Of a stretch of 64,000 nt of DNA, positions 1,641 to 34,540 are shown piece after piece. This stretch comes from a virus. Its lineage: Duplodnaviria > Heunggongvirae > Uroviricota > Caudoviricetes. The stretch's first letter is position 1. Each line of letters opens with the position of its first letter. Location of the stretch: the IMG/VR virus record IMGVR_UViG_3300048593_000385. One strand, given 5' to 3'. The notes under the pieces were generated by a model. The model was not told the origin of the DNA. It did not search any database and saw nothing but the letters and a program-made list of their open reading frames with translations. Position numbers and translations under genes: made by a program.

Positions 1641-1670
1641 GTGGCACCCCTTGGTATTGTAATCATAATC

Positions 1671-1678
1671 TATTTATG
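1671..1678 (-). promoter_or_regulatory. T4-type late promoter variant (CATAAATA)
   Basis: One mismatch to TATAAATA, 30 nt upstream of the portal ATG. Confidence 0.65.
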
Positions 1679-1684
1679 CGGTTA

Positions 1685-2221
1685 TTAAATGCCGCCAGCA
1701 TTACCAGTAGTACCAGCTTCAATGTCCCAGTAGTCGTATGTGAAGGTAACATTGAAACGCTCGAACTGATTGGTGTCTGACCAGTCAAGACGAATAGGAT
1801 CGATTCTTGATGGATAGATACCATTGAAACGATAAACGCGAAGCAGAGTTCCGTCCTTAGCCAACTGACCAACACGAGCTGTTGACTTGTATTGTGTAGT
1901 TGTTCTTAGGTTCTCTACCTTCATGTTGATTGCATCTGACCATGCTTCAAGAGCATTACGAACAGCGAAATCTTCATCGTTCATGATTGTAACAGTCCAA
2001 GGATCGTAAGTACGATCGCCAGCAAAGTTAATTACACGACCAAAATATGGAACAGGGATATTCCCGAGGTTTGACTCGGGAATATTTGTTGTGCTTGCTA
2101 GGAATTGAATTGTGCTATCAGCAGCAGAATCTACAGGATTGAAGATGTCAACGCTGAATAGCGTAGGACGAGCACCTTCAAACTGGAAATTCGCTCTTAC
2201 TTCGTTAATATTGAAAGCCAT
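1685..2221 (-). CDS. gp19: Tail tube protein (T4 gp19-like)
   Basis: GARPTLF...PYFGRVINFAGDRTYDPWTVTIMNDEDFAVRNALEAWSDAIN motifs; synteny. Confidence 0.96.
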   Translation of the reverse strand: MAFNINEVRANFQFEGARPTLFSVDIFNPVDSAADSTIQFLASTTNIPESNLGNIPVPYFGRVINFAGDRTYDPWTVTIMNDEDFAVRNALEAWSDAINMKVENLRTTTQYKSTARVGQLAKDGTLLRVYRFNGIYPSRIDPIRLDWSDTNQFERFNVTFTYDYWDIEAGTTGNAGGI

Positions 2222-2236
2222 TTTTTATTGCTCCTC

Positions 2237-4333: not shown

Positions 4334-4370
4334 GCTCCTTTTAGGTTGAAAGGCGATTTTTTATCTCTAT

Positions 4371-4378
4371 TATTTATA
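4371..4378 (-). promoter_or_regulatory. T4-type late promoter TATAAATA
   Basis: Exact consensus upstream of gp18. Confidence 0.85.
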
Positions 4379-4381
4379 AAA

Positions 4382-6067: not shown

Positions 6068-6467
6068 TTTGACCCTTAATCATTTTCAATAAATCATTTG
6101 TCGAAATAACAAGATTGTTGTTGATAGTTTGTTTCTCTTGTGGCTTTTCGATCAGAGTCTTTTTCTTCTGATGAATGTCAATTAAGTCCTTGCTGGTGTC
6201 GCGAATTGTGTCGACTAGCTTGGCCACAACTTCAAATGCTCTTGGGTGTTGAGAACCTTTGGCTATTTGGCATAAATCTTCTAACGCACCTTGGCTAGTT
6301 TCAAGAGCCGTCATGATCGCATCGCGAGCAACATCAAAGTCGCCTTCGGCTTGCTCCCATTGAGTTTCTGGTTCATTTATTTCAACAAGATCACTTTTTT
6401 GCTTGACTTCTAAAGGCATCGGAGGTAAGTTAAGTAACTGTCCGATTTTATCTTCCTTTTTATCCAT
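6054..6467 (-). CDS. gp16: Terminase small subunit (T4 gp16-like)
   Basis: SQHPRAFEVVAKL motif, C-terminal NNNLVISTNDLLKMIK, overlaps the gp17 start. Confidence 0.92.
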   Translation of the reverse strand: MDKKEDKIGQLLNLPPMPLEVKQKSDLVEINEPETQWEQAEGDFDVARDAIMTALETSQGALEDLCQIAKGSQHPRAFEVVAKLVDTIRDTSKDLIDIHQKKKTLIEKPQEKQTINNNLVISTNDLLKMIKGQNEGS

Positions 6468-7293
6468 TATTAAAATCCTCAGTAAAATCCACTATGAATC
6501 CATAATCATCAGTAGATTTAATTTGTGATGTGGGAATAGAGTTGGAGGCATTGGAAGTTGGCTCTCCGTTCGCAGTAAGTCCTGGTTTGGTATTAGTAAT
6601 AGTTACTGGGTCGCCTGTTCCTATACCTTCAGCAGCTGTATTTGTGTTCGGTATAAATTTGTTGACGATGACTTCCTTAATCTGGCTTTGACGACGAACT
6701 GGGCCATAGAGTTGACCTTTGAGAACAAAAGTCATTTCCCAGATTACCCACTCTTTGTCTTCAAAGTTGCTGGCATAAGTGTCAACAGTGCTTACGTTCT
6801 TGATGATGATTGGAACATCAATATTTACATCCATCTCAGGAATCAGAGCCAATGTTTCTGTCCACTGTGGTGTGAAATATGGAACAATCTGCTCCACAAT
6901 ACGAACAGCGTCTTCTGTATTTCTAGAGATGATCGACAGGGTTATGTCAAAGTTGTAAGCCACAGGATTGTATTGTGTTGCAAGAACATTTCCGTTTGAT
7001 GTGACGGAAGGGATTCTGCCAATGCTGTTCAGTTTTCTGTCTGGATCATAACTTACGCCTGTAATCTCAAACGACATTCTAGGAAACACCATTGAAACTT
7101 CGCGCAGCAGATCAGGATTTTGTTGATACCGAGTAAGGTATCTTTCTTTCGGTCCATATTGCAGCGGAACCTTGATTGTTCTTTGTGATACACCATTGGC
7201 GTCTACACGATCAATATAGATGTCATTGAACAGCGACCCAAACAGAACCACATATTTGCGAATAAGACCGTGGTAGAAATGCGAGCCTAACAT
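6460..7293 (-). CDS. gp15: Tail sheath stabiliser / tail terminator (T4 gp15-like)
   Basis: FYHGLIRKYVVLFGSLFNDI, KVPLQYGPKE, FPRMSFEI, QIVPYFTP. Confidence 0.94.
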   Translation of the reverse strand: MLGSHFYHGLIRKYVVLFGSLFNDIYIDRVDANGVSQRTIKVPLQYGPKERYLTRYQQNPDLLREVSMVFPRMSFEITGVSYDPDRKLNSIGRIPSVTSNGNVLATQYNPVAYNFDITLSIISRNTEDAVRIVEQIVPYFTPQWTETLALIPEMDVNIDVPIIIKNVSTVDTYASNFEDKEWVIWEMTFVLKGQLYGPVRRQSQIKEVIVNKFIPNTNTAAEGIGTGDPVTITNTKPGLTANGEPTSNASNSIPTSQIKSTDDYGFIVDFTEDFNNG

Positions 7294-8015
7294 TAGATAA
7301 TTTCTCCAAACGGATTCTTCTTAGAGAAGTCAATAAACGCACGACCCTCTGAGCTAAACAGACTGTTCTGAGTTGATGGATCAATTACGTCTGTATCGAA
7401 TTGACCTTCTGTCAGACCCGAACCGTCCCCAGCAAGTAGAGCATTTCCGTCTTGATCAGTGAAGAAGAATTCGTCAACTGCTGTGCTAAACTTGCTTCCG
7501 ATATTATCAATGGCAGCAACCCCAGTTTCGATTTTCTCGTTACTGATATTGACACGTTCAGCTTTAATATCGTAGTATGTCAACATCCCTGTTTGGTAGA
7601 AGTTGGATTCGTGCTCAACAAACTTGACCTCAAACAAAGCATTTGTCAAAGGTAGATAAATAAAGTCGCCCTCGAGTGGGCGGATGAGGCTTGGCTGGAA
7701 GTTGGTAAATTCGTCAGCCCAACGATTGCGCATCATGCTGAAAGTAATTTGGTCAGCCATACTGATACCAAACTTCTGCATAAGATCGCCTTCACCCTGC
7801 CAACCAGTAAAGGTCTTGATGTAGACTTCGATGGCAGTTGCTTGGTTGAATTCTGACAGAGTATCTTCGTTCCACAACCTGTCGATATTGACGTGAGAAC
7901 GAGGCATATAATATACGTCGATACCGTAACGTTGAATCATCTCCGTGCCTAAATCAGCAAGAAGTTGTTGCTCTCCGTAATTGGTAAAGTTATCAAAAAA
8001 TGTTGAAACAGCCAT
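7293..8015 (-). CDS. gp14: Neck protein (T4 gp14-like)
   Basis: EQQLLADL..EMIQRYGIDVYYMPR, RPLEGDFIYLP, FEVKFVEHE, C-terminal DFSKKNPFG. Confidence 0.94.
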   Translation of the reverse strand: MAVSTFFDNFTNYGEQQLLADLGTEMIQRYGIDVYYMPRSHVNIDRLWNEDTLSEFNQATAIEVYIKTFTGWQGEGDLMQKFGISMADQITFSMMRNRWADEFTNFQPSLIRPLEGDFIYLPLTNALFEVKFVEHESNFYQTGMLTYYDIKAERVNISNEKIETGVAAIDNIGSKFSTAVDEFFFTDQDGNALLAGDGSGLTEGQFDTDVIDPSTQNSLFSSEGRAFIDFSKKNPFGEII

Positions 8016-8018
8016 CAG

Positions 8019-8759
8019 TTATCCCATCATCATAGGAACAGGATAAGTAAATCCTGAAGTCATTGTTGCTTCCATCTTTTCAATTTCAGCGGTCGCATCA
8101 TCGTAAATCTTCTCGGCATTAAATCTTGCTCCGCCAGGAAGCGCAACGTCTTGGAATTTGGTGAGGTTGGTTCCCCACTGTTGTTTGATAAGTGCTGTTG
8201 CATATCTCTGTAGGAAACGGTCAGACCAAACTTTGGTGTACGTGTCGGGATCGACAATCTGATATGCTTCCACAAGAATATAAGTTCCGATAGGAGATTT
8301 ATCCCAGTCCATATCGATATACAGTCTATTTGATCTGCGGTTATAGCGAATTGGCTGTTGACCAACCAAAAGCTGCTCTAGGAGTTGAATGTGTTGCATA
8401 GCCATATAATATGGCACCATCGTAGTTGCAGTAAGATCGTAAAGATCGTTCAACGCAATCTGATAACGAATATTGAATAGGTTATTGGTTGACAAAGAAG
8501 AACCGATAGGGAAGATCGCAACAGCACCAATAATATTATCAGGTAGTGTGATGTATTTGTTGGCAGCTGCTTCGGGTGTGATCAATGCTTTGTAGTATTG
8601 CTTTTCGCTACCATCGAAATGATAGTCCCAGTAATACTGCAACGCATCGTCGATACGCTCTTGTAGTTGATCTTCGTCTACGTTAATCTGAGTAACAGGT
8701 GCACCGACTCTACGCAGGCAATATTGCTTGAATTGTTCTCTAGATGTTGGTAATGCCAC
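8019..8759 (-). CDS. gp13: Neck protein (T4 gp13-like)
   Basis: PTSREQFKQYCLRRVGAPVTQINVDEDQ, YATALIKQQWGTNLTKF..LPGG. Confidence 0.95.
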   Translation of the reverse strand: MALPTSREQFKQYCLRRVGAPVTQINVDEDQLQERIDDALQYYWDYHFDGSEKQYYKALITPEAAANKYITLPDNIIGAVAIFPIGSSLSTNNLFNIRYQIALNDLYDLTATTMVPYYMAMQHIQLLEQLLVGQQPIRYNRRSNRLYIDMDWDKSPIGTYILVEAYQIVDPDTYTKVWSDRFLQRYATALIKQQWGTNLTKFQDVALPGGARFNAEKIYDDATAEIEKMEATMTSGFTYPVPMMMG

Positions 8760-9417: not shown

Positions 9418-9722
9418 TGTCCACATACAAATCCGAATTCAAAGCTCAAATTCAGTGGGTAGATTTAGCAGACAATCGTATGGTTGTAGTGTATTCTGAT
9501 CCTCACGGTTATGAAGATATAACACAAACTATAAAATTCTATAAGACTGATACGATAGAAAAGATAAAAGAATCTATCATAAACACGACTCCGCACCAAA
9601 GATTCCATTTTCGTGCTGAAGCAGAAAAAAATAATGATGGAGACAATTCTCTGGAAATTTTAAAGCTGCTGAACACAGAAATGACATACAAACTGCCATC
9701 GTTTGATAATGAGGATATCTAA
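9417..9722 (+). CDS. Hypothetical protein, 101 aa
   Basis: TAATG-coupled to the genes on both sides. Confidence 0.75.
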   Translation: MSTYKSEFKAQIQWVDLADNRMVVVYSDPHGYEDITQTIKFYKTDTIEKIKESIINTTPHQRFHFRAEAEKNNDGDNSLEILKLLNTEMTYKLPSFDNEDI

Positions 9723-10369
9723 TGACTGATATTACTGATCTCATCAAGAATTATACCAAACTGCAATATTTGGCACTTGTTCCTGAAATTAGATTGTTTA
9801 TCAGAAACGATCATTATTTGCATGAAATGTTGATGGAAGAAGTGAACGACGAGTTCGTTGCTTGGCCAGAGTGGTCTAACGTCTGGGCAGGTGGCCACGG
9901 ATTAGCAAGATATATTCTAGACAATCCAGAATTGTTTGCAGGAAAAACTGTAATGGACTACTGCTCTGGTAGCGGTGTGGCTGGTATCGCGGCTGCTCTC
10001 GCGGGAGCAACGAAAGTTACTTGTGTTGATATTGATCAATATGCGCTTCAGGCGATCAAACTCAATGCCAAAGCCAATAAGGTGGAAGTAGAAGTATCCA
10101 AGACGCCTGTTGAAGCCGATGTCATTTTGGTTGGATGTCCTTCGTTTAAAACATTAGACGGAACATTTCCAGAAGAACAATTAGAACTGATCAAATCTTA
10201 TGAAAATTCATACCTCGGATACAAAATAATCAGAGACGAATATACTAAGGGTTTCTTTGACGCAGGAGAATTCGAGATTATTGATCGTAAAACAGTTCCT
10301 ACTTCTCAACATGTAGAAGGAAGAACGTTCCAAAAAGTAATTCTTATGACTTATATAAAACAGGAATAG
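9722..10369 (+). CDS. Class I SAM-dependent methyltransferase, METTL20/ETFB-KMT (PrmA-like) type
   Basis: VPEIRL, WSNVWAGGHGLARYILDNPELFAGKTVMDYCSGSGVAGIAAALAGA..V..VDID (motif I plus post-I). Confidence 0.85.
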   Translation: MTDITDLIKNYTKLQYLALVPEIRLFIRNDHYLHEMLMEEVNDEFVAWPEWSNVWAGGHGLARYILDNPELFAGKTVMDYCSGSGVAGIAAALAGATKVTCVDIDQYALQAIKLNAKANKVEVEVSKTPVEADVILVGCPSFKTLDGTFPEEQLELIKSYENSYLGYKIIRDEYTKGFFDAGEFEIIDRKTVPTSQHVEGRTFQKVILMTYIKQE

Positions 10370-11598
10370 TAATCAAATTGTTCGTCTACAGTTTTCCCTT
10401 CCATCTCTTTAACTTCTTTATTTTTTAAGTCAATATAGTGATCAATAATTGTCTGTCCGATAGCTGATGTGAGAATATGATCGTCTTTGAGATATTGAAG
10501 CGATTCGCTCAAACACTTTGGCATATGTTTATCTGACTTTTGTTCTATAAGACTTTTGTTGGTTTCTGATTTTGGGAAGGGATATTTGTGTTTGTATCCA
10601 AGAAGCATTGCATGCAATATAGCAGCCAGAGCAAAATATGGATTGGCTGAATAATCAGCGACTCTATATTCAATTCTGGCTCTTGATTCCGTTTCAGTTG
10701 ATACTCTAACTGAGGAATGGCGAGTTCCTTTTCTCCAGTTTGCCCAATAACCAGCTGCTCTATATTCGTGTACTCTCTCGTAACTGTTTACCGTAGGTGC
10801 CACGATTGCAGTAAGAGGCTTGTGGTGGTGCAATAATCCAGCGATAGAGCCTTTCATAACATCAGACATTTCTTCACCAGAGAACACATTCTCGCGTGTT
10901 TTGATGTCAGTAAAACTAATATTAAAATGCAATGCATTCCAGCCATCTGTTTTGGGAACTGGCATATAGCTGAGCAAATATCCACGCTTAATTAAAATTT
11001 CTCTTGACATTTGCCTGAACAGAAACACATTATCTGTAGCATCCAATGCGTCACTGTATTTCATTGTGAATTCAAATTGTCCTGGATCGTATTCTGAGTG
11101 CACAGATTCCAAAGGCAAATTGCATTTCTCTGCCATATTCCATATGTCGTCGATTAATCCTGCGGGATCAGAAAATGCTCCAGTGCTATAAAAACGAGCA
11201 TTATATTTGTTGTACGGATTTCCGTCATGATCAAAAATATTTGCTTCGGTTTCATATCCAACCATAGGTTCTAGACCTATATCTCTCCAAGCATTAATTG
11301 CTCTTTTTAGGGTTGTTCTGCCACAAAGAGGAAATGATTCGCCGTCAAGATACATGTCAGGCAAAACGATTTGCGTTCCTGCTTCCCATGATGGTCTGGC
11401 TGCACGCCAGTCGAATTTTCCTTCGATATCATGGTATTCATTGATTATGTCAAGACCGCCCGAAGGAGGATTCCCCGAATACCCAGCAGAATATGCACCA
11501 ACACAAAAACGAACAGATCCGTTTTTTGTTTCTGGGATATATTTGCCTCTTGCTATATTCATTTGATCTAAGAACAAGACGCGAAAACGATTAGGCAT
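10351..11598 (-). CDS. Glutamine synthetase-family ligase (closer in style to gamma-glutamyl-amine ligases than canonical GlnA)
   Basis: FLDQMNIARGK, GYETE, HSEYDPGQFE, LHFNIS, APTVNSYER, RIEYRVADYSANPY. Confidence 0.85.
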   Translation of the reverse strand: MPNRFRVLFLDQMNIARGKYIPETKNGSVRFCVGAYSAGYSGNPPSGGLDIINEYHDIEGKFDWRAARPSWEAGTQIVLPDMYLDGESFPLCGRTTLKRAINAWRDIGLEPMVGYETEANIFDHDGNPYNKYNARFYSTGAFSDPAGLIDDIWNMAEKCNLPLESVHSEYDPGQFEFTMKYSDALDATDNVFLFRQMSREILIKRGYLLSYMPVPKTDGWNALHFNISFTDIKTRENVFSGEEMSDVMKGSIAGLLHHHKPLTAIVAPTVNSYERVHEYRAAGYWANWRKGTRHSSVRVSTETESRARIEYRVADYSANPYFALAAILHAMLLGYKHKYPFPKSETNKSLIEQKSDKHMPKCLSESLQYLKDDHILTSAIGQTIIDHYIDLKNKEVKEMEGKTVDEQFDYYSCFI

Positions 11599-11607
11599 CT
11601 ACAAATC

Positions 11608-12612
11608 CTATACGATATAAGGTAACCACAACTGCTCTTCGTTTTCGTCATTAATTAACTCTTGGCTAGCACTGCTCGCAAAAGGAAAATGCTGTAGTTT
11701 GATTAATGTCGGGTATGCTCTTTTACGATCTTCAATTTTTTCATCGATATAATCTACGCCAGAATAATTGTAGTATTCGATCAGAACTGACTCTGGAACA
11801 TCCCTGAGATACCTTTTCCATTGCTCGATAGACAATGCAACTCTGCGTCCATATTCATCCATTGTAATTATTGGCTTGATCCATTGTTTAGTTGGCCAAT
11901 CGTGTGCGCCTGCAAAATGATAGCAATGCACTTCTGTTGGGGCATACATGTAGTATCCAGCCTCAAAAGAACTTAGAGTAAGAAGTTGTTCTTCGCCATC
12001 ATAAAATGATAGATGATTGATACCAACATTTTCAAGCCAATCTATGTGTGTGAACAAATTTCCAGCAAAAAGATGAATAGTAGGAACTACATCAGTTGTT
12101 GGTGGAACATGGTGGCCATGCACTCCATTAATAGAATCTCTACCCCAATGGAAGTATTGTGCATAAGTGGTAATACCATTTGCTTCAATATGTTTGTGTG
12201 GCACTCCTTCTTCTATTGTGAAAGTTTTGGTCGCACCATCAATAATTACTTTTTTGCTACCAGATTTTTTTACGCCTCGTTTATAATCTTCTACAAGATA
12301 ACGATCCCAGTTTTTATCGAACAACATGTGCGAGTCAATCTGATAAAAGAAATCCTCATCTCTCACATTAAGAGAGTTGACCTTTCTTGCCCAACCAACG
12401 CCGTCAGAAACGATTGGGTCAACTCTCTTATAAACAACATCTGGTCTTTCTACAAGTTCTGGATACAGATTCTCCAAAGAATCTTCAAATGCAGTTTGTT
12501 CTAAAACTGAATATGTTGCTTCGTGTTTGTTGGATTTTTCTTCAATCAAGCTCTCGAGCGTGTAGTGAAGAAGGGAATCTCTATACGAACAAATGGAGAC
12601 AAATATTTTCAT
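11608..12612 (-). CDS. Glycosyltransferase, GT60/Gnt1 (GlcNAc-transferase)-like, GT-A fold
   Basis: IFVSICSYRD N-terminus, GVGWAR, FFYQIDSHMLFDKNWD (DSH metal motif), FAGNLF, GEEQLL. Confidence 0.78.
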   Translation of the reverse strand: MKIFVSICSYRDSLLHYTLESLIEEKSNKHEATYSVLEQTAFEDSLENLYPELVERPDVVYKRVDPIVSDGVGWARKVNSLNVRDEDFFYQIDSHMLFDKNWDRYLVEDYKRGVKKSGSKKVIIDGATKTFTIEEGVPHKHIEANGITTYAQYFHWGRDSINGVHGHHVPPTTDVVPTIHLFAGNLFTHIDWLENVGINHLSFYDGEEQLLTLSSFEAGYYMYAPTEVHCYHFAGAHDWPTKQWIKPIITMDEYGRRVALSIEQWKRYLRDVPESVLIEYYNYSGVDYIDEKIEDRKRAYPTLIKLQHFPFASSASQELINDENEEQLWLPYIV

Positions 12613-13325
12613 TTTCCGAGATTAAACACTTTCTTTAACATTTGAAACTTGCGATAATACTGCTTGTCATCTCCTGGAATTGCGTTGTTATAATAATCTA
12701 ATTGTTGTTCTGTTCCTGGACCAAACCCAGCATTAAATTCTTTGTTCCAAAATGGGATTACGTGTAGCAAAGGATCACCTGCTTTAATGTGCACTTGGCA
12801 TTTTCTTTTTGGCGCACAAATAAAATTAGCTGTGTGGAATTTCTTATAATCGACAGACCCAGGAAACACCTCAAGGTCGTCTAAGAAATCCGAGTGATAG
12901 TATGCTGGAAGCAACAGTGCAGTTACATCACCTTTGGCAAAAATACCCCAAGGAGAATTGAAGTTTATTGGAGTAACAGGAACATCGTCTTCTGGATGAA
13001 TCAATCCTTCAACGACTTTGGCATCCATAAGTCTACCTTCACGATATCCTCTGTTCCCTCTCTCTCCAGATCCAATATAGTGCACTACTCCTGCTTTATT
13101 TGCCATAATATGAATATCAATCCAGGCAGGGATAATATAGCCAAGTTGTGCATATTGTATCATTCCTGGACAATGTGGCATTAGGTGCTTTTGGTGTTTA
13201 TTTTTTTGTATGTCAAAAGTTCTTGGCTTGACGTCGCTTGCTCTCATTATAGGAAATGTTTGATACGCAGTTCTATTCGTATCAACAAATTCCAAATCGC
13301 GTTTCTTTTTAAACAAGTTGATCAT
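12609..13325 (-). CDS. Hypothetical protein, DUF6065/dUTPase-fold-like
   Basis: CPGM..Y..LGYIIPAW.DI, SPW, IKAGDPLLHVIPF; paralogous to 13322-14041. Confidence 0.55.
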   Translation of the reverse strand: MINLFKKKRDLEFVDTNRTAYQTFPIMRASDVKPRTFDIQKNKHQKHLMPHCPGMIQYAQLGYIIPAWIDIHIMANKAGVVHYIGSGERGNRGYREGRLMDAKVVEGLIHPEDDVPVTPINFNSPWGIFAKGDVTALLLPAYYHSDFLDDLEVFPGSVDYKKFHTANFICAPKRKCQVHIKAGDPLLHVIPFWNKEFNAGFGPGTEQQLDYYNNAIPGDDKQYYRKFQMLKKVFNLGK

Positions 13326-14041
13326 TTTCTAGGCTCTCTCAATTCCTTGGTATACACATGACGACGAGTTCCCTGCATTTTCGAGATATTATCGATATCA
13401 GAAAACTCTTTGTCAGTCATAGATCTAATTGCTGGATTTGTTGGAATAGAAGATCTTTTGACAGGATGGACAACTACCAGAGGAGTTCCTGCTGGAATAA
13501 TATCATCAAAGTTAGGAGTGTGCCAAGCAGCAGGGAAATTAATCTCTTTGGGGTATTTATCAGTGTCAACCAATCCAGAGAGACAAGTAAAATGCCCACC
13601 AAAAGTGTTTACGAGAGGAGTGATCATAGTTGACCATCCAGGAGCTGTTTTGATCACCCAGTAGTTTACAAATTTAAGTGGTGTTGTGGGAAACCCAGGA
13701 GCTGTTTTTTCGCCTAGCTGTTTGATGTTGTGGAATTCACAAATTTTCATGGTTGGTGGATTGGTAATTTCGATTTGAGTTTTGTCTGCATTTGTCTTGA
13801 CATGAAGATCGCCCTGAAGCGGAATCACATATCCCATGGTCATTGCATCTAACATAGGCAGACACTTTTTTGCGGTCATGCTTTTTGCGCCAAACTCATC
13901 TCTATCCTCCATAAAAGGAGGGATTTTCTTGAACCATTCAGCAACATATTTGGCAGCTGGTTTTGGCTCGGGAATAATACCGTAGTTGTTGGGGTGACAG
14001 TAGAATTCAATGATTGGTTTTGGTTTGAATAAATTAAACAT
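13322..14041 (-). CDS. Hypothetical protein, DUF6065/dUTPase-fold-like (start revised from 14125 to the ATG at 14041)
   Basis: KKCLPMLDAMTMGYVIPLQGD, W..KTAPGWS, IPAGTPLVVVHPVKR; the ATG overlaps the upstream stop (TAATG). Confidence 0.55.
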   Translation of the reverse strand: MFNLFKPKPIIEFYCHPNNYGIIPEPKPAAKYVAEWFKKIPPFMEDRDEFGAKSMTAKKCLPMLDAMTMGYVIPLQGDLHVKTNADKTQIEITNPPTMKICEFHNIKQLGEKTAPGFPTTPLKFVNYWVIKTAPGWSTMITPLVNTFGGHFTCLSGLVDTDKYPKEINFPAAWHTPNFDDIIPAGTPLVVVHPVKRSSIPTNPAIRSMTDKEFSDIDNISKMQGTRRHVYTKELREPRK

Positions 14042-14631
14042 TATCCGTTTCTCTTTCCCATCACCCACATTACCAGAGACTTTCTTTCTCCTGAGATAAC
14101 AGGCTTCACGCGATGAGGCATCCAAGAAGCGAAGAATAGAATATCGCCCTTTTTAGGTTTGATAACTCTTGTGTCTTCAAAATTGCCGTTGATGCAAATC
14201 TCAAATTCTCCACCCTCATATTCTTCTGGTTCAGTCAATAACATAACCGCAGAGATTTTACGCTGGAAATTCTGCCATCCGAATTCAACATCCCAATGCC
14301 ATGTGTAGTGCTGATCAATTTTATATTTTGTATACTGAAGCGATTCTATTCCCTCAATATCATACATAAAGTGCTGATGATTTACTGTTGCGGTGATTTG
14401 GCCCAGCCTCTCAAACAACCATTGCGAGTTTTGATCAGGAAGAATCCAAGCAACCTCAGAGTCTCTAATCTCTTTTTTTGGATTGTTAGTATCGCTTCCA
14501 ATTTTGCCATGTTCGAAATTCTGAAGATCTTCTAGGAATGATATTTTATCAACCTCTTCAGGAGTGAAACCATTTTCCCATACCGCGAAACATTCCAACG
14601 GTGCATTATATTTGTAAAAACCAAATGTCAT
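14041..14631 (-). CDS. 2OG-Fe(II) oxygenase, PKHD/prolyl-4-hydroxylase-like
   Basis: IRDSEVAW, QYTKY, HxD (WHWD), RKISAV, YEGGEF, KGDILFF, PHRV, GERKSLVMW. Confidence 0.9.
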   Translation of the reverse strand: MTFGFYKYNAPLECFAVWENGFTPEEVDKISFLEDLQNFEHGKIGSDTNNPKKEIRDSEVAWILPDQNSQWLFERLGQITATVNHQHFMYDIEGIESLQYTKYKIDQHYTWHWDVEFGWQNFQRKISAVMLLTEPEEYEGGEFEICINGNFEDTRVIKPKKGDILFFASWMPHRVKPVISGERKSLVMWVMGKRNG

Positions 14632-14650
14632 AATAATTCCTCATAATATA

Positions 14651-15838
14651 TCAAGATACAACTATACTTATAGTTCCTCCAGTAGCGACTGTCACAGGAT
14701 ATGTTGCGTTGTCTGGATAAGCATAATAACTAACCAACGTCGCACTAATTGGAGTAGCAGTAGTTCCCCCTGTCGGAGAACCAGGAGCTGTTACGCCAAG
14801 CGCAGAAGATGGATTGCCTGCAACAGCAGGAACGATTGGATTGTAGTTAAGATTTCCAGGAACAATAGGATTATAATTTGCAGGTCCAGGAACAATAGGA
14901 TTATAATTTGCAGGTCCAGGAACAATAGGATTATAATTTGCGTTTCCAGGAACGATTGGGTTATAATTAAGATTTCCAGGAACGATTGGATTGTAGTTAA
15001 GATTTCCAGGAACAATTGGGTTATACTTCAATGTTCCAGGAACAATTGGGTTATACTTCAATGTTCCAGGAACGATTGGATTATACTTCAATGTTCCAGG
15101 GACAATTGGGTTATAATTTGCGTTTCCAGGAACGATTGGATTATAGTTTAAGTTCCCAGGAGTGATTGGGTTGTAGTTAAGGTTTCCAGGAACAACTACG
15201 TTGTAGTTTGGGACCTGTTGACCGAACTTAGCAAAATATCGGTATCCAGAAATATTAGAAGGTGTCGGAGCATTGTATGCACCAGTGGAATTACCTCCAG
15301 AAGGAGAATTGTACGTGCCAGTAGATGTTCCGCCTGTCGCAGGATTAGTGCCAGCAAATGACCCGCCAGAAGGTGCGTTATAAGTTCCAGTAGAAGAACC
15401 ACCAGAAGGCGCATTATAAGTTCCTGTTGAGGATCCACCCGACGGAGAATTATAAGTTCCTGTTGAGGATCCGCCAGAAGGTGAGTTATAAGTTCCTGTT
15501 GAGGATCCACCAGAAGGTGCGTTATAAGTTCCTGTTGAGGATCCACCAGAAGGTGCATTGTATCCAACTAATGATCCACCAGAAGGTGCATTGTATCCAA
15601 CTAATGATCCACCAGAAGGTGCATTATAATTGGCTAATGAACCACCAGAGGGTGCATTGTATGTGGCAGATGTGCCGCCAGATGCAGCTGTTCCTGTGCC
15701 GCCGCGACCTGACACGTTGATCACATTTTTGCCGAAAGGAACTGTGATGTTTCCAGGAGCATTAAAGTTGGTAGTACCAATACCACTTTGCCTCCAAGTT
15801 TTTTCTAATCCGTAATTTCCACCTGCGCCAATACCCAT
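14651..15838 (-). CDS. Gly/Pro-rich repeat protein A, probable virion appendage
   Basis: Gly-rich domain split by 12 YN(A/S)PSGG-type units, a 17-aa linker and 13 YNPI(V/T)PG-type units. Confidence 0.8.
   Translation of the reverse strand: MGIGAGGNYGLEKTWRQSGIGTTNFNAPGNITVPFGKNVINVSGRGGTGTAASGGTSATYNAPSGGSLANYNAPSGGSLVGYNAPSGGSLVGYNAPSGGSSTGTYNAPSGGSSTGTYNSPSGGSSTGTYNSPSGGSSTGTYNAPSGGSSTGTYNAPSGGSFAGTNPATGGTSTGTYNSPSGGNSTGAYNAPTPSNISGYRYFAKFGQQVPNYNVVVPGNLNYNPITPGNLNYNPIVPGNANYNPIVPGTLKYNPIVPGTLKYNPIVPGTLKYNPIVPGNLNYNPIVPGNLNYNPIVPGNANYNPIVPGPANYNPIVPGPANYNPIVPGNLNYNPIVPAVAGNPSSALGVTAPGSPTGGTTATPISATLVSYYAYPDNATYPVTVATGGTISIVVS
14828..15208 (-). repeat. 30-bp coding tandem repeat, (N/T/P)(L/A)(N/K)YNPI(V/T)PG x12 plus one degenerate unit
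   Basis: Counted in the translation; the repeat is visible in the DNA. Confidence 0.95.
15260..15661 (-). repeat. 33/36-bp coding tandem repeat, YN(A/S)PSGG.. x10 plus two degenerate units
   Basis: Counted in the translation. Confidence 0.95.
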
Positions 15839-15853
15839 CTTAATATTCTTTCA

Positions 15854-16843
15854 TTAAGAGCTGACGATAGTTATGCTGCCACCTGGTGCAACAGTCACTG
15901 GATATGTTGCGTTGTCTGGATAAGCATAATAACTAACCAACGTCGCAGAAATAGGAGTAGCTGGCGTTCCGCCAATTGGAGACCCAGGAGCAGTAACTCC
16001 CAATGCTGATGATGGATTTCCTGCTACGGCAGGAAAAAATATACCATAAGTTTGATTTCCTGGAGTAATTGGGTTGTAGTTGAGAGTTCCTGGAGTAATT
16101 GGGTTGTAGTTGAGAGTTCCTGGAGTAATTGGGTTATAGTTAAGGTTTCCAGGAGTAATTGGATTATAGTTTAAGTTCCCAGGAGTAATTGGATTATACT
16201 TCAATGTCCCAGGAGTAATTGGGTTATAGTTAAGGTTTCCAGGAACGATTGGGTTATAATTAAGATTTCCAGGAACGATTGGATTGTAGTTAAGGTTTCC
16301 AGGAACAACTGCGTTGTAGTTTGGAACCTCTTGGCCGAACTTAGCAAAATATCGATATCCAGCAATATTCTCTGGTGTTGGAGCATTGTATGCACCAGTG
16401 GAATTACCTCCAGATGGTGCGTTATAAGTTCCTGTGGAATTACCTCCAGATGGTGCGTTATAAGTTCCTGTGGAATTACCTCCAGATGGTGCGTTATAAG
16501 TTCCTGTGGAATTACCTCCAGATGGTGCGTTATAGTTTGCTGCGCCTCCGCCAGTCGGTGCATTGTAGTTTGCAGCTCCACCACCTGTTGGAGCATTGTA
16601 GTTTGCTGGGTTTCCGCCTGATGGAGCGTTGTAATTTGCAGCACCTCCACCAGATGGAGCGTTGTATCCTGTCGGCGCACCACCACTAACAGCAGTGCCT
16701 GTCCCGCCACTACCAGAAACATTAATGAAGTTCTGGCCATATGGAATGGTAAAGTTTCCAGGAGCATTAAATGTAGTGGTGCCAGTGCCGCTTGCACGCC
16801 ACGTTTTTTCTAAAAGAAATTTACTTCCACCAATTCCTGGCAT
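15854..16843 (-). CDS. Gly/Pro-rich repeat protein B, paralog of A
   Basis: Same 59-aa N-domain, 17-aa linker and 58-aa C-domain lengths as A; 9 + 10 repeat units. Confidence 0.8.
   Translation of the reverse strand: MPGIGGSKFLLEKTWRASGTGTTTFNAPGNFTIPYGQNFINVSGSGGTGTAVSGGAPTGYNAPSGGGAANYNAPSGGNPANYNAPTGGGAANYNAPTGGGAANYNAPSGGNSTGTYNAPSGGNSTGTYNAPSGGNSTGTYNAPSGGNSTGAYNAPTPENIAGYRYFAKFGQEVPNYNAVVPGNLNYNPIVPGNLNYNPIVPGNLNYNPITPGTLKYNPITPGNLNYNPITPGNLNYNPITPGTLNYNPITPGTLNYNPITPGNQTYGIFFPAVAGNPSSALGVTAPGSPIGGTPATPISATLVSYYAYPDNATYPVTVAPGGSITIVSS
16031..16321 (-). repeat. 30-bp coding tandem repeat, YNPI(V/T)PG x8 plus two degenerate units
   Basis: Counted in the translation. Confidence 0.95.
16373..16666 (-). 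repeat. 33/36-bp coding tandem repeat, YNAP(S/T)GG x8 plus YNAPTP
   Basis: Three exact copies of the 36-mer gtggaattacctccagatggtgcgttataagttcct at 16398-16505, plus a partial fourth. Confidence 0.95.
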
Positions 16844-16862
16844 TTAACTCTCCGTTATATTA

Positions 16863-16870
16863 TATTTATA
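16863..16870 (-). promoter_or_regulatory. T4-type late promoter TATAAATA
   Basis: Exact consensus about 20 nt upstream of ATG 16843, followed by a GGAGAG RBS. Confidence 0.85.
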
Positions 16871-16871
16871 T

Positions 16872-17501
16872 TTATGCCGCACCCTTGACGGCCAGAGAAA
16901 CAATCCATGTTGAACCTGCATTATATGTCAGAACGTTCCAAATATCAATAGCATTTGCCGATGTTGTTTGTGGTGGAGATACACCGCCTGCAAATCTAGT
17001 GCCAGATGGCCATGTAATTGTGCGACCGCCAGTAGCATCTTGAGCAGCGACAATAACAAAAGAAACAACTTTGCCTGTCGGAGCATTCGTGAACGTAAAA
17101 GTTGTGCTGCTTGACATTGTAAGGTTAAAGAAGTTCGATGTCGACAGGTCTAAGGTTGTTGCCGCTGACGAAACAGTAGTATTAGAAACATATTCAGAAT
17201 ATGCTCTGAGAGTGATACCACCACCGTATGGCGCCAGATCGATCTGTCCATTGGCAAACACCTCTATAGAAGGAATACCAGAAACGTCATTGACACTATA
17301 AATTGAGCCAGTAAGATCGTTGGTAATAGAAAATAGCTGACCAGCTGAACCTTCAAACGAAAGAGTTCCGTTCGAAGTAGGATATGTCTGCATAGTGATA
17401 GCAGTATTGACAGTAGCATTACCACCACGGAACTCGATTTTCGGATCCGCAGTGTTGCTTCTGTTTGGCGTTATGATAATATCTTTATAACTATTTGCCA
17501 T
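16872..17501 (-). CDS. Virion structural / fibre-associated protein, 209 aa
   Basis: LSFEGSAGQLFSITN..SVNDVSGIPSIEV motif; C-terminal domain shared with the 1699-aa fibre (QDATGGRTITWP). Confidence 0.7.
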   Translation of the reverse strand: MANSYKDIIITPNRSNTADPKIEFRGGNATVNTAITMQTYPTSNGTLSFEGSAGQLFSITNDLTGSIYSVNDVSGIPSIEVFANGQIDLAPYGGGITLRAYSEYVSNTTVSSAATTLDLSTSNFFNLTMSSSTTFTFTNAPTGKVVSFVIVAAQDATGGRTITWPSGTRFAGGVSPPQTTSANAIDIWNVLTYNAGSTWIVSLAVKGAA

Positions 17502-20780: not shown

Positions 20781-23700
20781 TTAAAACTCCACTACCAGCT
20801 TCTCGACATCCTTACGCTCAGCAAACACTGTATAGAAACAATCGATGTTTTCGCCGCCAACAACAATATAGTCATCAGCAATATGCTCAACAAACAATTC
20901 TTGATGCTTGCCGACTGGTGTCAGATTGACTGTATACGTATCCTGATCAACAAGACCTTCCCAGTAATCAGGAAGATGGATAATAGTTTCGCCAGCCTTC
21001 AGTCTGCCACGAACATATACACCATTTTCTGGACCTTCGAGCGATCCGTAGCGCAGTTTCATATCTGGCTTGGTCGGGTGATCAATAACGAACGACTTGG
21101 TAGTAGCAGCGAACGATCCGTTGACTTCTAGTTTGTAGCCAGGAGTTGTGGTGCCGATACCGACATTCTGATTCGACTTAATGAACAAACCAGTGGTGCC
21201 GTTTGTTATTAGGGCAAGTGATCCGCTTGTTGGAGATGCGAATGTTTGGGTGGTTCCGTCGCTGTATCCAGAAGTCCACGATATGTAACCGCCACTACCG
21301 AAAGTCATGGTATCAGCAAAGTAACTCTGTCCATTAACATTAAGTTTATATGCACCTGGAGCTGTCGTACCGATACCAACGTTGCCGCTTGTTCTAGTAA
21401 CGTTAATTGCGTTGACAACAACCGAGTTTTCAACAGTCCCAAAGGTAAATAAGTCCGCTGCACTATCATATCGTATGATACCGCCATATGCTGTGGTATC
21501 AAATTCACTGATAAAGATATCTCGTGTTCCGGTGCCGCCAGAGCCACCATCAAGTCTCAATAATGTTCCAGCACTACCAACGACGTGTAGTTTGTTTGCT
21601 GGAGTTATGGTGCCGACGCCGACGTTGCCGTTATAACCAACAGACATATAAACGGTAGGTGTCGCCCCGCCTGTATTATTGATTGCAAAATCTATTCTTG
21701 TATCGGTGCTGGAATTCCAATAAGGTGTAATCAGTGCTCGATACGTTGTATTCGAATCGTATCGCATCGTAATACCAGCACCCTGTGTGCTGCCGATATC
21801 GAGCATTGTGCCTGGAGCTGTCGTGCCGATACCAACTTTACCATCATATTGGATAGTAAGTTTGGAATCTGTCAGTGTAGCAGAGCCACCGTCAGCAGCT
21901 CCATCGTTCAGAATATGAATCTTACCTCTTGCAGAACCGTCTTCTCTTTCAAAAACAATAGCAGATTTTCTATAGTTCTGGTTTGCAGATTCTGAGTAAC
22001 CGAAGTGAATACCAGACCAAACTCCAGTGCTTATAGGCGACCCGAAGCTAGCTTGAAAATTAGTAGCATTGCCGTTATTGACATCAAGCTCATATTGAGG
22101 AGTTGTGGTGCCGATACCGAAGTTGCCGCTGGCGGAAATTACTTGGTAGATGGTTCCATTAAGCGATACAGAATATCCACCATTGGACACGCCTGAAATC
22201 GAAGGGTTGAGATCGACGTAGTTGCCACTAGCAAAGTTCGTGTTCATACGGATGGCATTTGTGCCGCCTGATGATTGATATGTTTCTAGTCTGGCGCCAG
22301 GAGAAGTCGTTCCAATCCCTACGTTGCCGCTGGCGTCGATGCGCATACGTTCAGCGCATGCGCCGTTTCCGCCGCCACCATTTGTGTAAAACCGCATATG
22401 GCTAGAAGTACTTGCGGAAGGGTTGTTTTGAATAACAGCGATTCTGCCCATATATGAGTTTGTGGCGCTTTGATCTCCGAAAACAATTCCACCTGCCGAC
22501 GTTGGGTTTGAGGATGTACCTCCAGATGTAATACCATAAATGTTTATGTTACCTACTTCGGGATCACCAAACTGGAATGTTGGCCTCACGGTCAGCATAG
22601 TTGTCGGAGTCGTTGTACCTATGCCGACGAAGCCATTATCTTGAAGTGTCATAACTGTAACGTTAGGCAAACTGGAGTTGTCTGTTACCGATTTGAGATT
22701 AATATCAAGTCTTGAAAATGGATTTGACCCGCCACCAGTTTGCCATCTACCGAGAGCAAACGATGCACCTTCCCTCCACACGGAGGCGGATCCTTCTCGA
22801 GTGAGAGTAAGTATAGTTTCAACGCTAGCTGCATCTCCAGTCAACGGAGCTGCGCTTCCAAATATTTGCAACTTAGACTGAGGGCCAGTCGTACCAATCC
22901 CAACGTTGCCGCTGCCGTCGATGCGCACACGTTCTGTTGTGCCTGTGCGGAATGCATGAACACTCGCATCTATATTAAGAGCTTGATATGCCGATGTACT
23001 GCGGTTATATGACTGAATAACACCAGTAGGTAAAATTTCAATACCACCAGCGCCAGCATTACTTACAACAAAAGGCTGTTGTGGCGAAGTCGTACCAATC
23101 CCGACATTGCCGTTGGCGCTAACTCTTACTCTATTCACCCAGTTGGCATGACTTACAGTGCCACTAGTATAATAACCCATATCAACTATTGGATTATTGC
23201 CAGTGTAATCGCCTACCAATCTCAAACCAGCAGTAGACTGGTCCATACCAATACCACTGTAATTACCATAAGTGCCAACAAAGAGAGGGTTGTTTGGCAC
23301 TGTGCTTCCAAAGTTTAGAGCAATTGCTGTTGTATTACCAACAACATCTAATCTCGACCCAGGAGTTGTCGTGCCTATACCAACTCTATTATTGACACCA
23401 TCGACAAAAAGAACACCAGAATCAAAGTTAGCATTTGCTCCAAAGGTTGCAACACCACCAACTTGAAGTGTAGTCGATACGTTAGCAAATCCAGTAAGGG
23501 TGGTGTTACCAGCAGCTACTGTGCCACCAACTTGAAGTGTAGTAGATACGTTAGCAGATCCAGTAATCGTTGTATTACCAAGCCCAACAGTGCCTGCAAC
23601 GGTTAACTTGCTGCCAGGAGAAGTCGTACCAATTCCGACGTTAGCCCCACTTGTAGGCGCCAAATGGATATTACCACCCCAAAACGCAGTGGCGCTGGCA

Positions 23701-26700
23701 TTAGTGGTATATGTGTTCACCCATTGAAGTTGTGATGCATTGCTGATAGTGGCAACTTCAGTTGATCTATATCGAACATCGATAGTAGCTACCGTGTATT
23801 GTGGAAGATCAATCAGAACAGGAATGTAGTTGATAGTTCCTGATACTAATACTTCTGTGCCGAGATACAGCTTGTGCATCTGAGTGCCAGCCGCTTCAAC
23901 ACAGTACGCAGTGCCTGCATCTACTTGGTTATAATTGATAATCCATCTAGTCTTGCCGCCACGATAGTACTGATTGTAAATAGTCACTTCTAGATACTGA
24001 GTAGACCAGTTTACTGTGTCGCGTGAAATTCTACACAGTTCGTATGTAGTATTATTCGCGCCTTGGCCACCTGCTGTAAGAGAATAGAGCTTGCCAGTGG
24101 TTGCTGTTCCGACGCTGATTGTATTGACTACAGCAGAACCGTTTACTTCCAACGTTGCGTTTGGAGTAGTCGTGCCAATTCCGAAATTGCCATTTGCAGC
24201 GACACGCATGCGTTCTGTATTATTGGTAAACAACATCAGCGGATTATTGCTAACAACACCAACAGCTGCAACTGAGCTGCCGAAATTGTCGTTCATTCTA
24301 AGATCTCGACCACCACCATTAGATTGGAACTGATCAGATGTTCTGACCATACCAACAACATCTAATTTTGCCCCAGGACTTGTCGTGGCAATCCCGATGT
24401 TTCCGTTGCCAGCATCAATGCGCATTCTTTCAGTAGTGCCGCCAGCATAGAATCTTAAATGGCCAGCTGTTGTGCCTGTATTATTGTATCCAATATACAT
24501 TCCATCTTGCATGCTACTTGAATTATTTCTAATTACTCTGCTGTTAATATATACATCAGTGCCAGCATTGTCAATAACCGACACTCCACCAAATTTCAAA
24601 GAACTGGTGAAATTTATGGCGCCTGTAACAGATAACTTGTCCGCAGGAGTAGTGTTCCCTATTCCGACGTTGCCGTTAGCAGCGACACGCATACGCTCAC
24701 TACTTCCGCCTGTATAAATACTCACAATACCAGCAGCTTCCCCAGCTGTAATATTGAGAGCACCAGTAGAAATACCTATACCATATGTTGGTGTAGCGCC
24801 GCTTGACCATAGAGCAATTTTATTGATAAGCTGCGCCAGCGTTGAGGGTGTGCCATTATAATAGGTATTGTTTAGGTCGAGTATCGTATTTGGCGCAGTC
24901 GTCCCAATCCCGACATTGCCTGTGTTAGAGATGCGCATGCGCTCACTGCCAATGTGGAATGTTAATTCTGTACCAGAACCACCATAAAGAGCGTTTACTC
25001 CACCTACTGATCCAATACCAATAGTTCTTGTAGATGTTCGATACTGAAGGCCATCGCCATCTAGACCAACAACGTCAAGCTTTACACTAGGTGTTAATGT
25101 ACCAACACCAACTCTATTGTTCGTGCCGTCTACGAAAAGAACACCAGAATCAAAGTTAGCATTTGCTCCAAAGGTTGCAACACCACCAACTTGTAGAGTC
25201 GATGTGATGTTAGCAAAGCCAGTAAGAGTAGTGTTACCAGCAGCTACTGTGCCATTAACCGACAATTTGTGGGCTGGTGTTGTATTACCAATCCCCATGT
25301 TGCCTGTCGCTGCTTGAATCCTTACTTTCTCGGTAATAATATCTGCGGTGTCTTGCGTATGGAATGCCAGACCCGAAACGTTGAGTCCTTCGTATACAGC
25401 TACGATTCTGCCTCTATCTCTTGTTTGGTTGTCGCCGATTCCGCCGCTAAAGACAATAGCTGGGCCACTTCCATTTGCCGCAGAGGCAGCATTATTGACG
25501 CTTTCGAATTTGCTGGTTAATCTTAAAACGTCATCTACTGTTGAATTGTTTGCAGGCACCACATAGGCATGAAGTCTTGTCGCAGGAGTTGTCGTACCTA
25601 TACCAACTCTATTGTTCGTTCCGTCTACGAAAAGAACACCAGAATCAAAGTTCGCATTTGCTCCAAAGGTTGCAACACCTCCGACTTGCAACGTAGTTGC
25701 TACGTTAGCAAAGCCAGTCGTCGTAATACCCGTACTGTTGGCAACGAATGCAGCATTAGCAATGCTTGCATAGTCAGAACCATATGTTGCTGTTAAGTTA
25801 TTGACGTTAGATGCGTTAAATCCGCTTAATCTAAGCAACGCTTGGTTTTGATACCCACCTGATATACTTGCATACGCAGTTGCATTCGTTCCAGGGAAGC
25901 TGTCGAATAAATTTACCGCATGCGTATAGTTACCGCCTCTGATATTGAGCAAGTCATTCCCAGTAGCAGCAGATGTGATAAAATTACCTGGCTGAGCTCC
26001 AGTTTTAACTATAACATTGGTAGTGGTAACAGCTGTACTGTTTGCAGAGGTAAATACGGTGCTATTACCAATCTGCGCTGTAGATGTAACGTTAACAAAC
26101 CCAGTAATTGTAGTGTTGCCAGCGGCAAGAGTAGTAATACCAGAAGCAGCACCAGTAGCTACAAGAGAAGATATTGCTAGTGGCTGGCCGTTTGTTGTCC
26201 AGCGATCATTGGTTTCATCCCATAGGAACTGTACGTTCGCAGATGTTCCGCGCATAATCTCCATACCAGCATCCTGCGTAGGAGGATTGGCACCGAGATC
26301 AGCATTGAGAGTGACGATATTATCACCAACGTCGAGCGTCGTAGTGTTGACGTATGTTCTCGTACCAGATACTGTAAGATTTCCTGATACTGTGAGGTCG
26401 CCAGACAGCGCAAGCGATGTAAGTGATAATGCCGAGTTAACATGGATACCAGTCGTATTCACAGTTAGCGTATTGCCAGCTACGACACCAAGGGTTCCAG
26501 TAGATGTAATTGTTCCGCCCGTCAGACCGTTAGCGGTTGCGATAGATGTTACCGTGCCAAGATACTGATCAGCCGAACTAATAATGATGTGGCTGGCATT
26601 TGATGATACGTTAGAAGTACCTGCACCAGTAAACGTCACATTGTCATTAGAGTTACTCGAGTCTTTCAATCTCAGTATGCCAGCATTGACCGCAGTGTTC

Positions 26701-34177: not shown

Positions 34178-34540
34178 TTAAAACAATTCTGGATTAGCCT
34201 TGGCAAACCTGCGCATAATCACGCCAGCTTTTGCGTTGGCTTCGTTTTCGTCATCGCTACCATCTTCGCCATTCGTATGCCCATGCGAGTAGTGCACCAG
34301 CTCATGCGCGAGCGTGCGCATCACATCCATGGAGTGCCGACCTTCAGGATTCAGAGTAATTTTCTCTCCATCCCAGCATCCGAATGCTCTCATCTCTCTT
34401 GATTCTTTGCCAGTAACAAGATTGATCGGAGGCACCTCGGCGATCCCCAATTCAGTTTTCACAAAAGGAATGAATTTGTCGAGGACTTCTCCGACTTCTT
34501 TTTTGTGGAGTTCCTCGACAAACTGTTTAAATGATTGCAT
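34178..34540 (-). CDS. HExxH zinc-metallopeptidase-like protein with T4 internal-protein-like N-terminus
   Basis: RTLAHELVH motif, downstream ENEANAKAG; N-terminus MQSFKQFVEE. Confidence 0.7.
   Translation of the reverse strand: MQSFKQFVEELHKKEVGEVLDKFIPFVKTELGIAEVPPINLVTGKESREMRAFGCWDGEKITLNPEGRHSMDVMRTLAHELVHYSHGHTNGEDGSDDENEANAKAGVIMRRFAKANPELF

Follow-up and report, generated by a model that had tools for sequence, protein, structure and literature searches.

The closest described systems to the proteins reported here are the needle of phage T4 gp37 and the glycine-rich adhesins gp38 and gp24. In T4 gp37, the collar domain D10 consists of two segments (residues 811 to 881 and 1010 to 1026), and the elongated D11 needle, which is held by iron ions on His residues, lies between them (PMC6957217). 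The gp38 proteins of S16 and T2 and gp24 of Pam3 combine a beta-sandwich (TNF-like in Pam3 gp24) with out-and-back Gly-rich loops that have conserved stems and variable receptor-binding tips (PMC9608196, PMC3157838). Here, we describe two adjacent paralogous genes, A and B, in a 64,000-nucleotide (nt) stretch of DNA (the window) of the Caudoviricetes record IMGVR_UViG_3300048593_000385 in IMG/VR. In both products, one repeat arm very probably carries the chain outward to a conserved tip, where the chain turns to come back along a different arm that is matched to the first unit for unit, giving a previously undescribed length-adjustable stalk in two lengths. By analogy, A and B appear to belong to an unnamed family that functions like the gp37 needle and the Gly-rich adhesins, rather than to those groups.

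Paralog A (positions 14651 to 15838; 395 amino acids, aa) and paralog B (15854 to 16843; 329 aa) are adjacent open reading frames (ORFs) on the minus strand and are 65% identical overall. They were delineated from the ORFs, from their translations, and with profiles built from the family alignment for an N block (~42 aa) and a C block (~58 aa), which match A at residues 9 to 50 and 338 to 394 and B at residues 9 to 50 and 272 to 329. A GGAG sequence lies 8 to 9 nt ahead of the ATG of B. Parsing of both ORFs bore out the two-armed layout proposed in an earlier sequence-only reading of this DNA: an N-terminal part of 59 aa ahead of the first YNAP unit, arm 1 composed of YN(A/S)PSGG units of 11 to 12 aa each (GG type), a 17-aa linker containing GYRYFAKFGQ (NISGYRYFAKFGQQVPN in A and NIAGYRYFAKFGQEVPN in B), arm 2 composed of YNPI(V/T)PG units of 10 aa each (PG type), and a C-terminal part of 58 aa. 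When the unit running into the linker is included, arm 1 has 12 units in A and 9 in B; arm 2 has 13 units in A and 10 in B, the latter being 9 units and the degenerate YGIFFPAVAGN. Both arms differ by three units between the paralogs, and the counts of that reading (12 + 13 and 9 + 10) hold with degenerate end units counted.

All segments of the two proteins are encoded on the minus strand. In B, they are the N-terminal part (16667 to 16843, aa 1 to 59), arm 1 with eight GG-type units of 11 to 12 aa (16391 to 16666, aa 60 to 151), the tip unit with GYRYFAKFGQ (16319 to 16390, aa 152 to 175), arm 2 with nine PG-type 10-aa units and the degenerate junction unit (16031 to 16318, aa 176 to 271), and the C-terminal part (15857 to 16030, aa 272 to 329). 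The corresponding segments of A are the N-terminal part (15662 to 15838, aa 1 to 59; N profile match), arm 1 with 11 GG-type units, 4 of them with Leu or Phe (15278 to 15661, aa 60 to 187), the tip unit with the same motif (15206 to 15277, aa 188 to 211), arm 2 with 13 PG-type 10-aa units, 4 of them with Ala where the others have Leu (14828 to 15205, aa 212 to 337), and the C-terminal part (14654 to 14827, aa 338 to 395; C profile match). Tandem Repeats Finder resolved the arms as separate DNA arrays with periods of 30 nt (arm 2) and 33/36 nt (arm 1), and their consensus DNA units are dissimilar except at the Tyr-Asn codons, in agreement with the previous claim that the two kinds of repeats are unrelated in DNA sequence. 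However, a YN.P..G skeleton is common to both unit types at the protein level, and the GG-type and PG-type units may be distantly related through such a skeleton.

The lengths of the two arms change together across the family. Units were counted with one fixed heuristic rule, in which the anchors (aromatic-Asn, x-Asn-Pro/Ala, or aromatic-Ser/Thr-Pro) are spaced by 8 to 13 residues and the tip is the longest gap or the gap with a Lys-aromatic-Gly-type motif (K-F/Y-G, FKG, or S-K-F/Y). The arm 1 and arm 2 counts were correlated among 55 to 59 two-armed proteins (r = 0.85) and also with the IMG/VR proteins added (n = 67, r = 0.95, slope of 0.96); the counts spanned 2 to 25 units, and the relatives included some with 25/25, 24/25, 19/19, 15/15, 15/16, and 13/12 units. 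When tips were placed at random in the 29 proteins with at least 8 units, arms within 1 unit of each other were expected in 3.5 proteins, compared with the 20 observed, and 0 of 200,000 simulations reached 20. The sequence sets contain near-duplicates, and kinship was addressed by contrasts between 32 non-overlapping nearest-neighbor pairs chosen by base-domain identity. In these contrasts, the changes in the two arms were correlated through the origin (r = 0.79) and were of the same sign in 13 pairs and of opposite sign in 2 (P = 0.004). The proposal that the arm lengths co-vary, originally made from A and B, thus extends to 67 relatives and survives both the kinship contrasts and the random-split null. 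The correlation obtained from residue lengths (r = 0.76) is not cleanly separable from the matching of unit counts.

A subgroup of relatives (P0007, P0008, P0015, P0026, P0039 to P0047, P0051, and P0058) has four arms split by Cys-containing modules (CEP...CP.P). Their outer arms are nearly constant, and their inner arms are within 1 unit of each other in 14 of 15 cases (3/3 to 6/6, r = 0.71), a pattern that fits a nested (double) hairpin. Tandem paralog pairs built of NYNVAYP-type units of 22 to 27 aa were found in two other phage contigs (L068, 4762 to 7973, and L074, 2220 to 6501), and these also obey the matched-arm rule, with 6/7 and 8/8 units at one locus and 10/11 and 11/11 at the other. 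Elsewhere, the family loci have one copy each.

The path of the chain is given by the base from which the arms emerge. In AlphaFold2 models of B and of a short homologue, P0060, the N and C blocks form one beta-sandwich, with predicted local distance difference test (pLDDT) values of 86 to 96 over most of both halves. The N-terminal part of B contributes the first half of this sandwich (strands at residues 21 to 25, 29 to 32, and 38 to 45; pLDDT 86 to 96), and the C-terminal part contributes the second half (pLDDT mostly 93 to 95, with one 10-residue block at 70). Because the two end parts lie in one domain, the insert must leave and return, and the models firmly predict that it exits and reenters a single base domain. 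Structural aligners treated residues 20 to 329 of B as one sandwich domain. The best fold matches, although weak, were to the CUB/MG domains of C3 and alpha-2-macroglobulin (Z scores of 5.5 to 5.9), which are likewise sandwiches split by a large insertion, and weaker ones were to Pam3 gp24 (7ypx_A, Z of 4.5 to 4.9), TNF/C1q-like chains (Z of 4 to 4.6), and ALK across its glycine-rich insert (7nx3_A, Z of 4.1). All of these values (Z of at most 5.9) are in the range of common arrangements and chance resemblance, and no fold class follows from them. Foldseek searches of the PDB, BFVD, and the ESM Atlas with both models gave nothing significant. The Gly_rich_2 and ALK_LTK_GRD clusters, which were leads from an ESM Atlas feature search with values below 0.85, were not confirmed by hidden Markov models and were set aside.

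Near the base, the models contain isolated beta-bridges, at residues 50, 53, 63, and 67 and residues 104, 108, 119, and 122 in P0060 (pLDDT 51 to 74) and at residues 50 and 53 and residues 270 and 273 in B. The bridge partners were assigned from constant residue sums (171 to 172 in P0060 and 323 in B) rather than from coordinates, in regions of low to moderate confidence. At that same confidence, the constant sums would fit an antiparallel ladder in which each unit contributes about one bridge.

The sense of the pairing can be read from the distribution of bulky residues along the arms. The mean unit length differs between the arms in 41 of 52 proteins, typically with 10-aa PG-type units in one arm and 11- to 12-aa GG-type units in the other, in either order. 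If the arms pair unit to unit, unit counts rather than residue counts are expected to match, and a bulky Leu or Phe is expected to lie opposite Ala in the partner unit. In A, Leu or Phe follows the Gly pair in GG-type units 1 to 3 and 9, and Ala takes the place of Leu in PG-type units 3 and 9 to 11. When the arms are laid against each other in mirror order (register 0), exactly one such residue falls in each layer (11/11), whereas no shifted or parallel register exceeds 7/11. The same analysis could be applied to L009 and L012, two relatives in which the arm types are swapped relative to A. The L009 protein (424 to 1806, plus strand; 15/16 units) is closely related to A, its C-terminal part being near-identical and its tip similar, but in it the PG-type arm precedes the GG-type arm; arm 2 of A aligns to arm 1 of L009 with 73% identity and arm 1 of A to arm 2 of L009 with 54%. 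The mirror register gave 13/14 in L009 and 13/13 in L012, whereas the best parallel registers gave 5/12 to 6/11 and 3/12 to 5/12, respectively, depending on the offset range. Shuffling gave P values of 0.016, 0.002, and 0.0005 for A, L009, and L012, respectively. B is uniform, with Leu in every arm 2 unit and no Leu or Phe in arm 1, which is consistent with the pattern but uninformative. We read the mirror-order pattern as probable compensatory change between partner units, and at the sequence level it argues for antiparallel unit-to-unit contact, either within a chain or between identical chains. The suggestion that arm 1 pairs antiparallel with arm 2 is supported by the one-domain base together with this pattern in the three proteins. 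A family-wide rule of one hydrophobic residue per layer was also considered and was rejected, as it holds only in the clade of the window and distant clades use other unit chemistries.

Several observations weigh against arms that are paired and matched in this way. Among 23 informative proteins, the mirror register exceeded the parallel one in 8 and the parallel register exceeded the mirror one in 4, with 11 ties. Only one arm had changed in 15 of the 32 close pairs, mostly by 1 unit and by up to 3, and the arms are unequal in P0034 (3 versus 8 units) and P0168 (3 versus 7 units). In B, three 36-nt copies in arm 1 (16398 to 16534) are 100% identical in DNA, while the closest pair in arm 2 is identical at 29/30 positions, meaning that recent arm 1 copies are present without equally recent arm 2 copies. 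The family was absent from the cultured-phage records searched, in which megablast with the region gave nothing and tblastn gave low-complexity matches only with B and none with the relative P0021. Finally, the arms have pLDDT values below 50 and no regular secondary structure in the AlphaFold models, which gave no confident model of a ribbon. Of the out-and-back ribbon envisaged in the sequence-only reading, modeling thus sustained the out-and-back path, which is forced by the confidently joined N and C blocks, and did not reproduce the ribbon itself.

Assembly errors may account for some of the unequal arms: the N terminus of P0045 is chimeric, and the twin of this protein, L042, has 7/7 units. 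More generally, metagenome assemblies can collapse repeats, which affects unit counts. The identical copies in arm 1 of B indicate, as judged from their DNA, a very recent expansion, and because they have no arm 2 counterpart, a one-arm expansion can precede compensation. Arm matching is a strong tendency and not an absolute rule. The low confidence of the arms in monomer models does not count as evidence of disorder.

The same low confidence would also be expected if the chain went out and back while its arms stayed unpaired within it, each arm forming its own rod (a tight solenoid or a polyproline-like helix) or pairing with other subunits in an intertwined trimer; the lengths would then match because the ends meet in the base. 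Fiber proteins are commonly trimers, the base weakly matches trimeric TNF/C1q-like sandwiches, some relatives have a two-unit super-period (20 to 21 aa), and arm 2 has weak tblastn matches to pentapeptide-repeat proteins, all of which would suit such an arrangement. However, the mirror-order compensation in A, L009, and L012 needs antiparallel unit-to-unit contact. That contact could be made between the chains of a symmetric oligomer, and to this extent the explanation overlaps with that of a paired hairpin; we consider arms unpaired within the chain unlikely, but deserving of some weight. A trimer prediction with three copies of P0060 scored 0.13 against a mark of 0.42 and was counted neither for nor against oligomerization.

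Low arm pLDDT, together with the Pro/Asn/Gly-rich composition and the near-constant prolyl-hydroxylase-type oxygenase and N-acetylglucosamine (GlcNAc) transferase neighbors described below, could instead point to a flexible, heavily hydroxylated or glycosylated low-complexity brush or spacer (extensin- or mucin-like) with no fixed pairing. A brush would give no reason for equal unit numbers in unlike arms from 2 to 25 units or for mirror-order compensation. In addition, the unit sequences are under purifying selection: synonymous and nonsynonymous codon differences among repeat copies number 123 versus 60 in arm 1 of A and 119 versus 75 in arm 2 of B, and this synonymous excess means that the unit sequence is maintained. 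We regard a brush as very improbable.

The explanation that we judge best overall, and probably correct, is that A and B are accessory proteins of the fiber apparatus with an antiparallel-paired hairpin stalk. The first ~50 and last ~58 residues of each chain build the base beta-sandwich, as the confident models of this base show, and from it the chain would run out on arm 1 (11- to 12-aa GG units), turn at the tip (Tyr-Phe-Ala-Lys-Phe-Gly), and return on arm 2 (10-aa PG units). As the covariation suggests, the two unlike arms would lie antiparallel with unit paired to unit. Units would be gained and lost by slippage of the DNA repeats, and selection would restore matched arms, which would make stalk length an evolvable character. 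In this way, the phage appears to keep two old paralogs whose tips are nearly the same and whose stalks have 9 and 12 layers. A and B would be structural accessory proteins, most likely distal ligand-presenting pieces that work with or are attached to the upstream fiber protein; their assignment to the fiber is drawn from gene context only. A more specific claim is that they represent a new kind of stalk, in which unlike arms zip antiparallel with RNA-stem-like compensation, slippage sets the length, the tip is swappable, a dedicated cassette performs maturation, and two paralogs hold the same tip at two distances; we put this forward tentatively, at somewhat less than even chances.

If the pairing is real, it is an evolvable way to make an adjustable-length rod from one chain, with a pairing rule between two repeat types that is readable from sequence. 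It would also account for an unnamed component that is widespread in the fiber clusters of aquatic phages, help in understanding how uncultured phages adjust how far they reach toward the host surface, and offer protein designers a natural modular spacer. The arm fold has no AlphaFold prediction or solved relative, and its structure, once determined, would probably be new.

The nearest topological precedent is T4 gp37 D10-D11, in which, as in A and B, a base of two discontinuous segments flanks an elongated part. Both occur in fiber gene clusters of T4-like phages, and the gp37 chain likewise runs to a receptor-binding tip and back. However, the gp37 needle, unlike the arms of A and B, has no tandem-repeat array of variable copy number, it is based on iron and His while there is no His anywhere in A or B, and it is the end of a 1,026-aa fiber, whereas A and B are separate proteins of 330 to 400 aa. 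Profile searches against the PDB and fold searches gave no sequence match or significant fold match of A or B to the gp37 needle. The second group resembles A and B in gene placement, as the gene for the small gp38 protein directly follows the fiber gene and the A/B family is placed likewise in 32 of 38 distinct loci. In structure, this group likewise extends loops out from a sandwich and back, with variable ends, and Pam3 gp24 and ALK gave the weak base-domain matches above. The gp38, gp24, and ALK/LTK domains have 10 to 12 short polyglycine-II helices in a multiloop lattice, whereas A and B have one very long loop with two unlike repeat arms, and their units contain 1 to 3 Gly per 10 to 12 residues with no three-residue Gly period, unlike the polyglycine-II lattice. 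The PF12810 and PF21722 profiles had no match at E values up to 5 in 30 family members, and no Pfam, PHROG, or PDB profile match linked A or B to gp38 or gp24. Two other repeat classes were considered and rejected. A pentapeptide repeat protein is not supported by any Pfam match, and the DNA period is 30 nt (10 aa) and not five residues, the weak tblastn match (37% over 91 aa) being the only likeness. A collagen triple helix does not fit, as Gly-X-Y triplets are absent from A and B and PF01391 matches neither protein.

Comparison of A and B suggests that they are old duplicates, as their end domains differ by 21 to 24 synonymous differences per ~59 codons. Nonsynonymous differences are unevenly distributed, affecting 22 of 59 codons in the N-terminal part, 6 of 58 in the C-terminal part, and only 3 of 24 in the tip, where 5 further codons have synonymous differences. 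The tip is thus essentially the same in both paralogs, as had been proposed. In relatives with quite different arms, the counterparts of the YFAKFGQ tip are RQKFGK (L009), SPKFGY (L015 and L039), TPKFGT (L014), and VSKYGS (L003), and the tips of other clades are Cys-containing modules of 40 to 140 aa. The combination of a conserved stem with a replaceable tip resembles the receptor-binding parts of phage fibers and, by that analogy, suggests a similar function.

The initial search yielded 57 related proteins, and 214 matches at E values up to 0.001 were obtained when 1.84 billion cluster representatives were searched with a profile. The family comprises at least 214 metagenomic clusters (50% identity), is widespread in aquatic phage fiber clusters, and is unnamed; all of its named cluster members are annotated as "hypothetical protein." In IMG/VR, 74 loci were found. 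The N and C profiles are always at opposite ends of the protein in 130 to 139 relatives, and the insert between the two blocks is 30 to ~490 aa long in the protein set, with a maximum of ~610 aa among the IMG/VR ORFs. Pfam and PHROG contain no family for A or B, and a profile search of PDB sequences gave no match at E values up to 1.

The window comes from an uncultured, aquatic, T4-like myophage. Homologues of portal, tube, sheath, large terminase, gp15, gp14, and gp13 are encoded on the same strand at 3 to 8759, their families being assigned by analogy with locus L001, and the fiber cluster that contains A and B adjoins this block. The large terminase shares 57% identity with its counterparts in Methylophilales phage Melnitz and Synechococcus phage S-PM2. 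Directly upstream of B, which starts 28 nt after it, is a gene for a 209-aa fiber-like protein (16872 to 17501, minus strand) that matches tail-fiber PHROG families and is 49% to 54% identical to the C termini of the upstream fiber genes in L003 and L005. In the 32 of 38 distinct loci mentioned above, a family member is preceded, at a distance of at most 300 nt, by the stop of an ORF that ends in the ~100-aa C-terminal domain of this protein.

This location, right after a fiber gene with a conserved C-terminal domain, raises the possibility that A and B, instead of being part of the virion, are assembly factors or chaperones of the upstream fiber, in the manner of T4 gp38 or Tfa. The gene that follows the fiber gene encodes a chaperone in both Pam3 and T4 (PMC9608196, PMC6957217). 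However, known fiber chaperones are small helical or sandwich proteins without long variable repeat arrays or hypervariable tips, profile searches gave no match to a chaperone family, and the length variation, the variable tip, and the two paralogs with one tip fit better with a displayed ligand-binding part. A chaperone role is improbable in our assessment.

Downstream of A, a conserved set of genes follows on the minus strand. The first is a 2-oxoglutarate-Fe(II) oxygenase gene (14041 to 14631; PF13640, a prolyl-4-hydroxylase-type family; Pfam E = 5e-18), and in at least 32 of 39 distinct loci such a gene directly follows the family member on the same strand, with a median gap of 15 nt. Three loci scored as having no adjacent oxygenase have an oxygenase match elsewhere in the locus, which in L003 is directly downstream of the family member. 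In the window, the oxygenase gene is followed by two DUF6065-like genes (12609 to 14041; Pfam DUF6065), both of which are cross-matched by the DUF6065 and neighbor-gene profiles; these follow in 31 of the 33 distinct loci with enough downstream DNA. The next gene encodes a GlcNAc-type glycosyltransferase (11608 to 12612; PF11397, Pfam E = 2.5e-23), found in 8 of the 12 distinct loci whose downstream DNA extends for at least 6 kb. The cassette order is thus fiber gene, hairpin protein, oxygenase, two DUF6065-like genes, and GlcNAc transferase (window 11608 to 17501; loci L003 to L079), and the cassette is also present in contigs of other phage types. A literature search found no mention of DUF6065 or PF26209. 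In one locus, the cassette contains an additional GT25/PLOD-type glycosyltransferase gene.

Enzymes of the PF13640 and PF11397 types are linked to the hydroxylation of Pro and its subsequent glycosylation, as in Skp1 with P4H1 and Gnt1. Like the hydroxyproline-rich repeat proteins that have modifying enzymes of their own (collagens and Skp1), A and B have Pro-rich repeats, including X-Pro-Gly in arm 2, and they are encoded next to such oxygenase and transferase genes. In A and B, modification is suggested by synteny only: the oxygenase and glycosyltransferase encoded downstream probably modify the Pro-rich arms or, alternatively, the neighboring fiber, which is collagen-like in several loci. 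The steadiness of these neighbors points to post-translational maturation of phage fibers, which has hardly been studied.

Further genes were observed around the cassette. Adjoining it at 9722 to 11598 are a glutamine-synthetase-family gene (PF00120, E = 8e-67) and a PrmA/lysine-methyltransferase-like gene; a link of the latter or its neighbor to the Lys of the tip would be speculation. Beyond the gene for the 209-aa protein, the fiber cluster contains a 3,448-aa ORF (20781 to 31127, minus strand) among further fiber-like genes. A 1,699-aa protein (34540 to 39639, minus strand) ends in the same C-terminal fiber domain as the 209-aa protein, and its gene is followed by no gene of the hairpin family.

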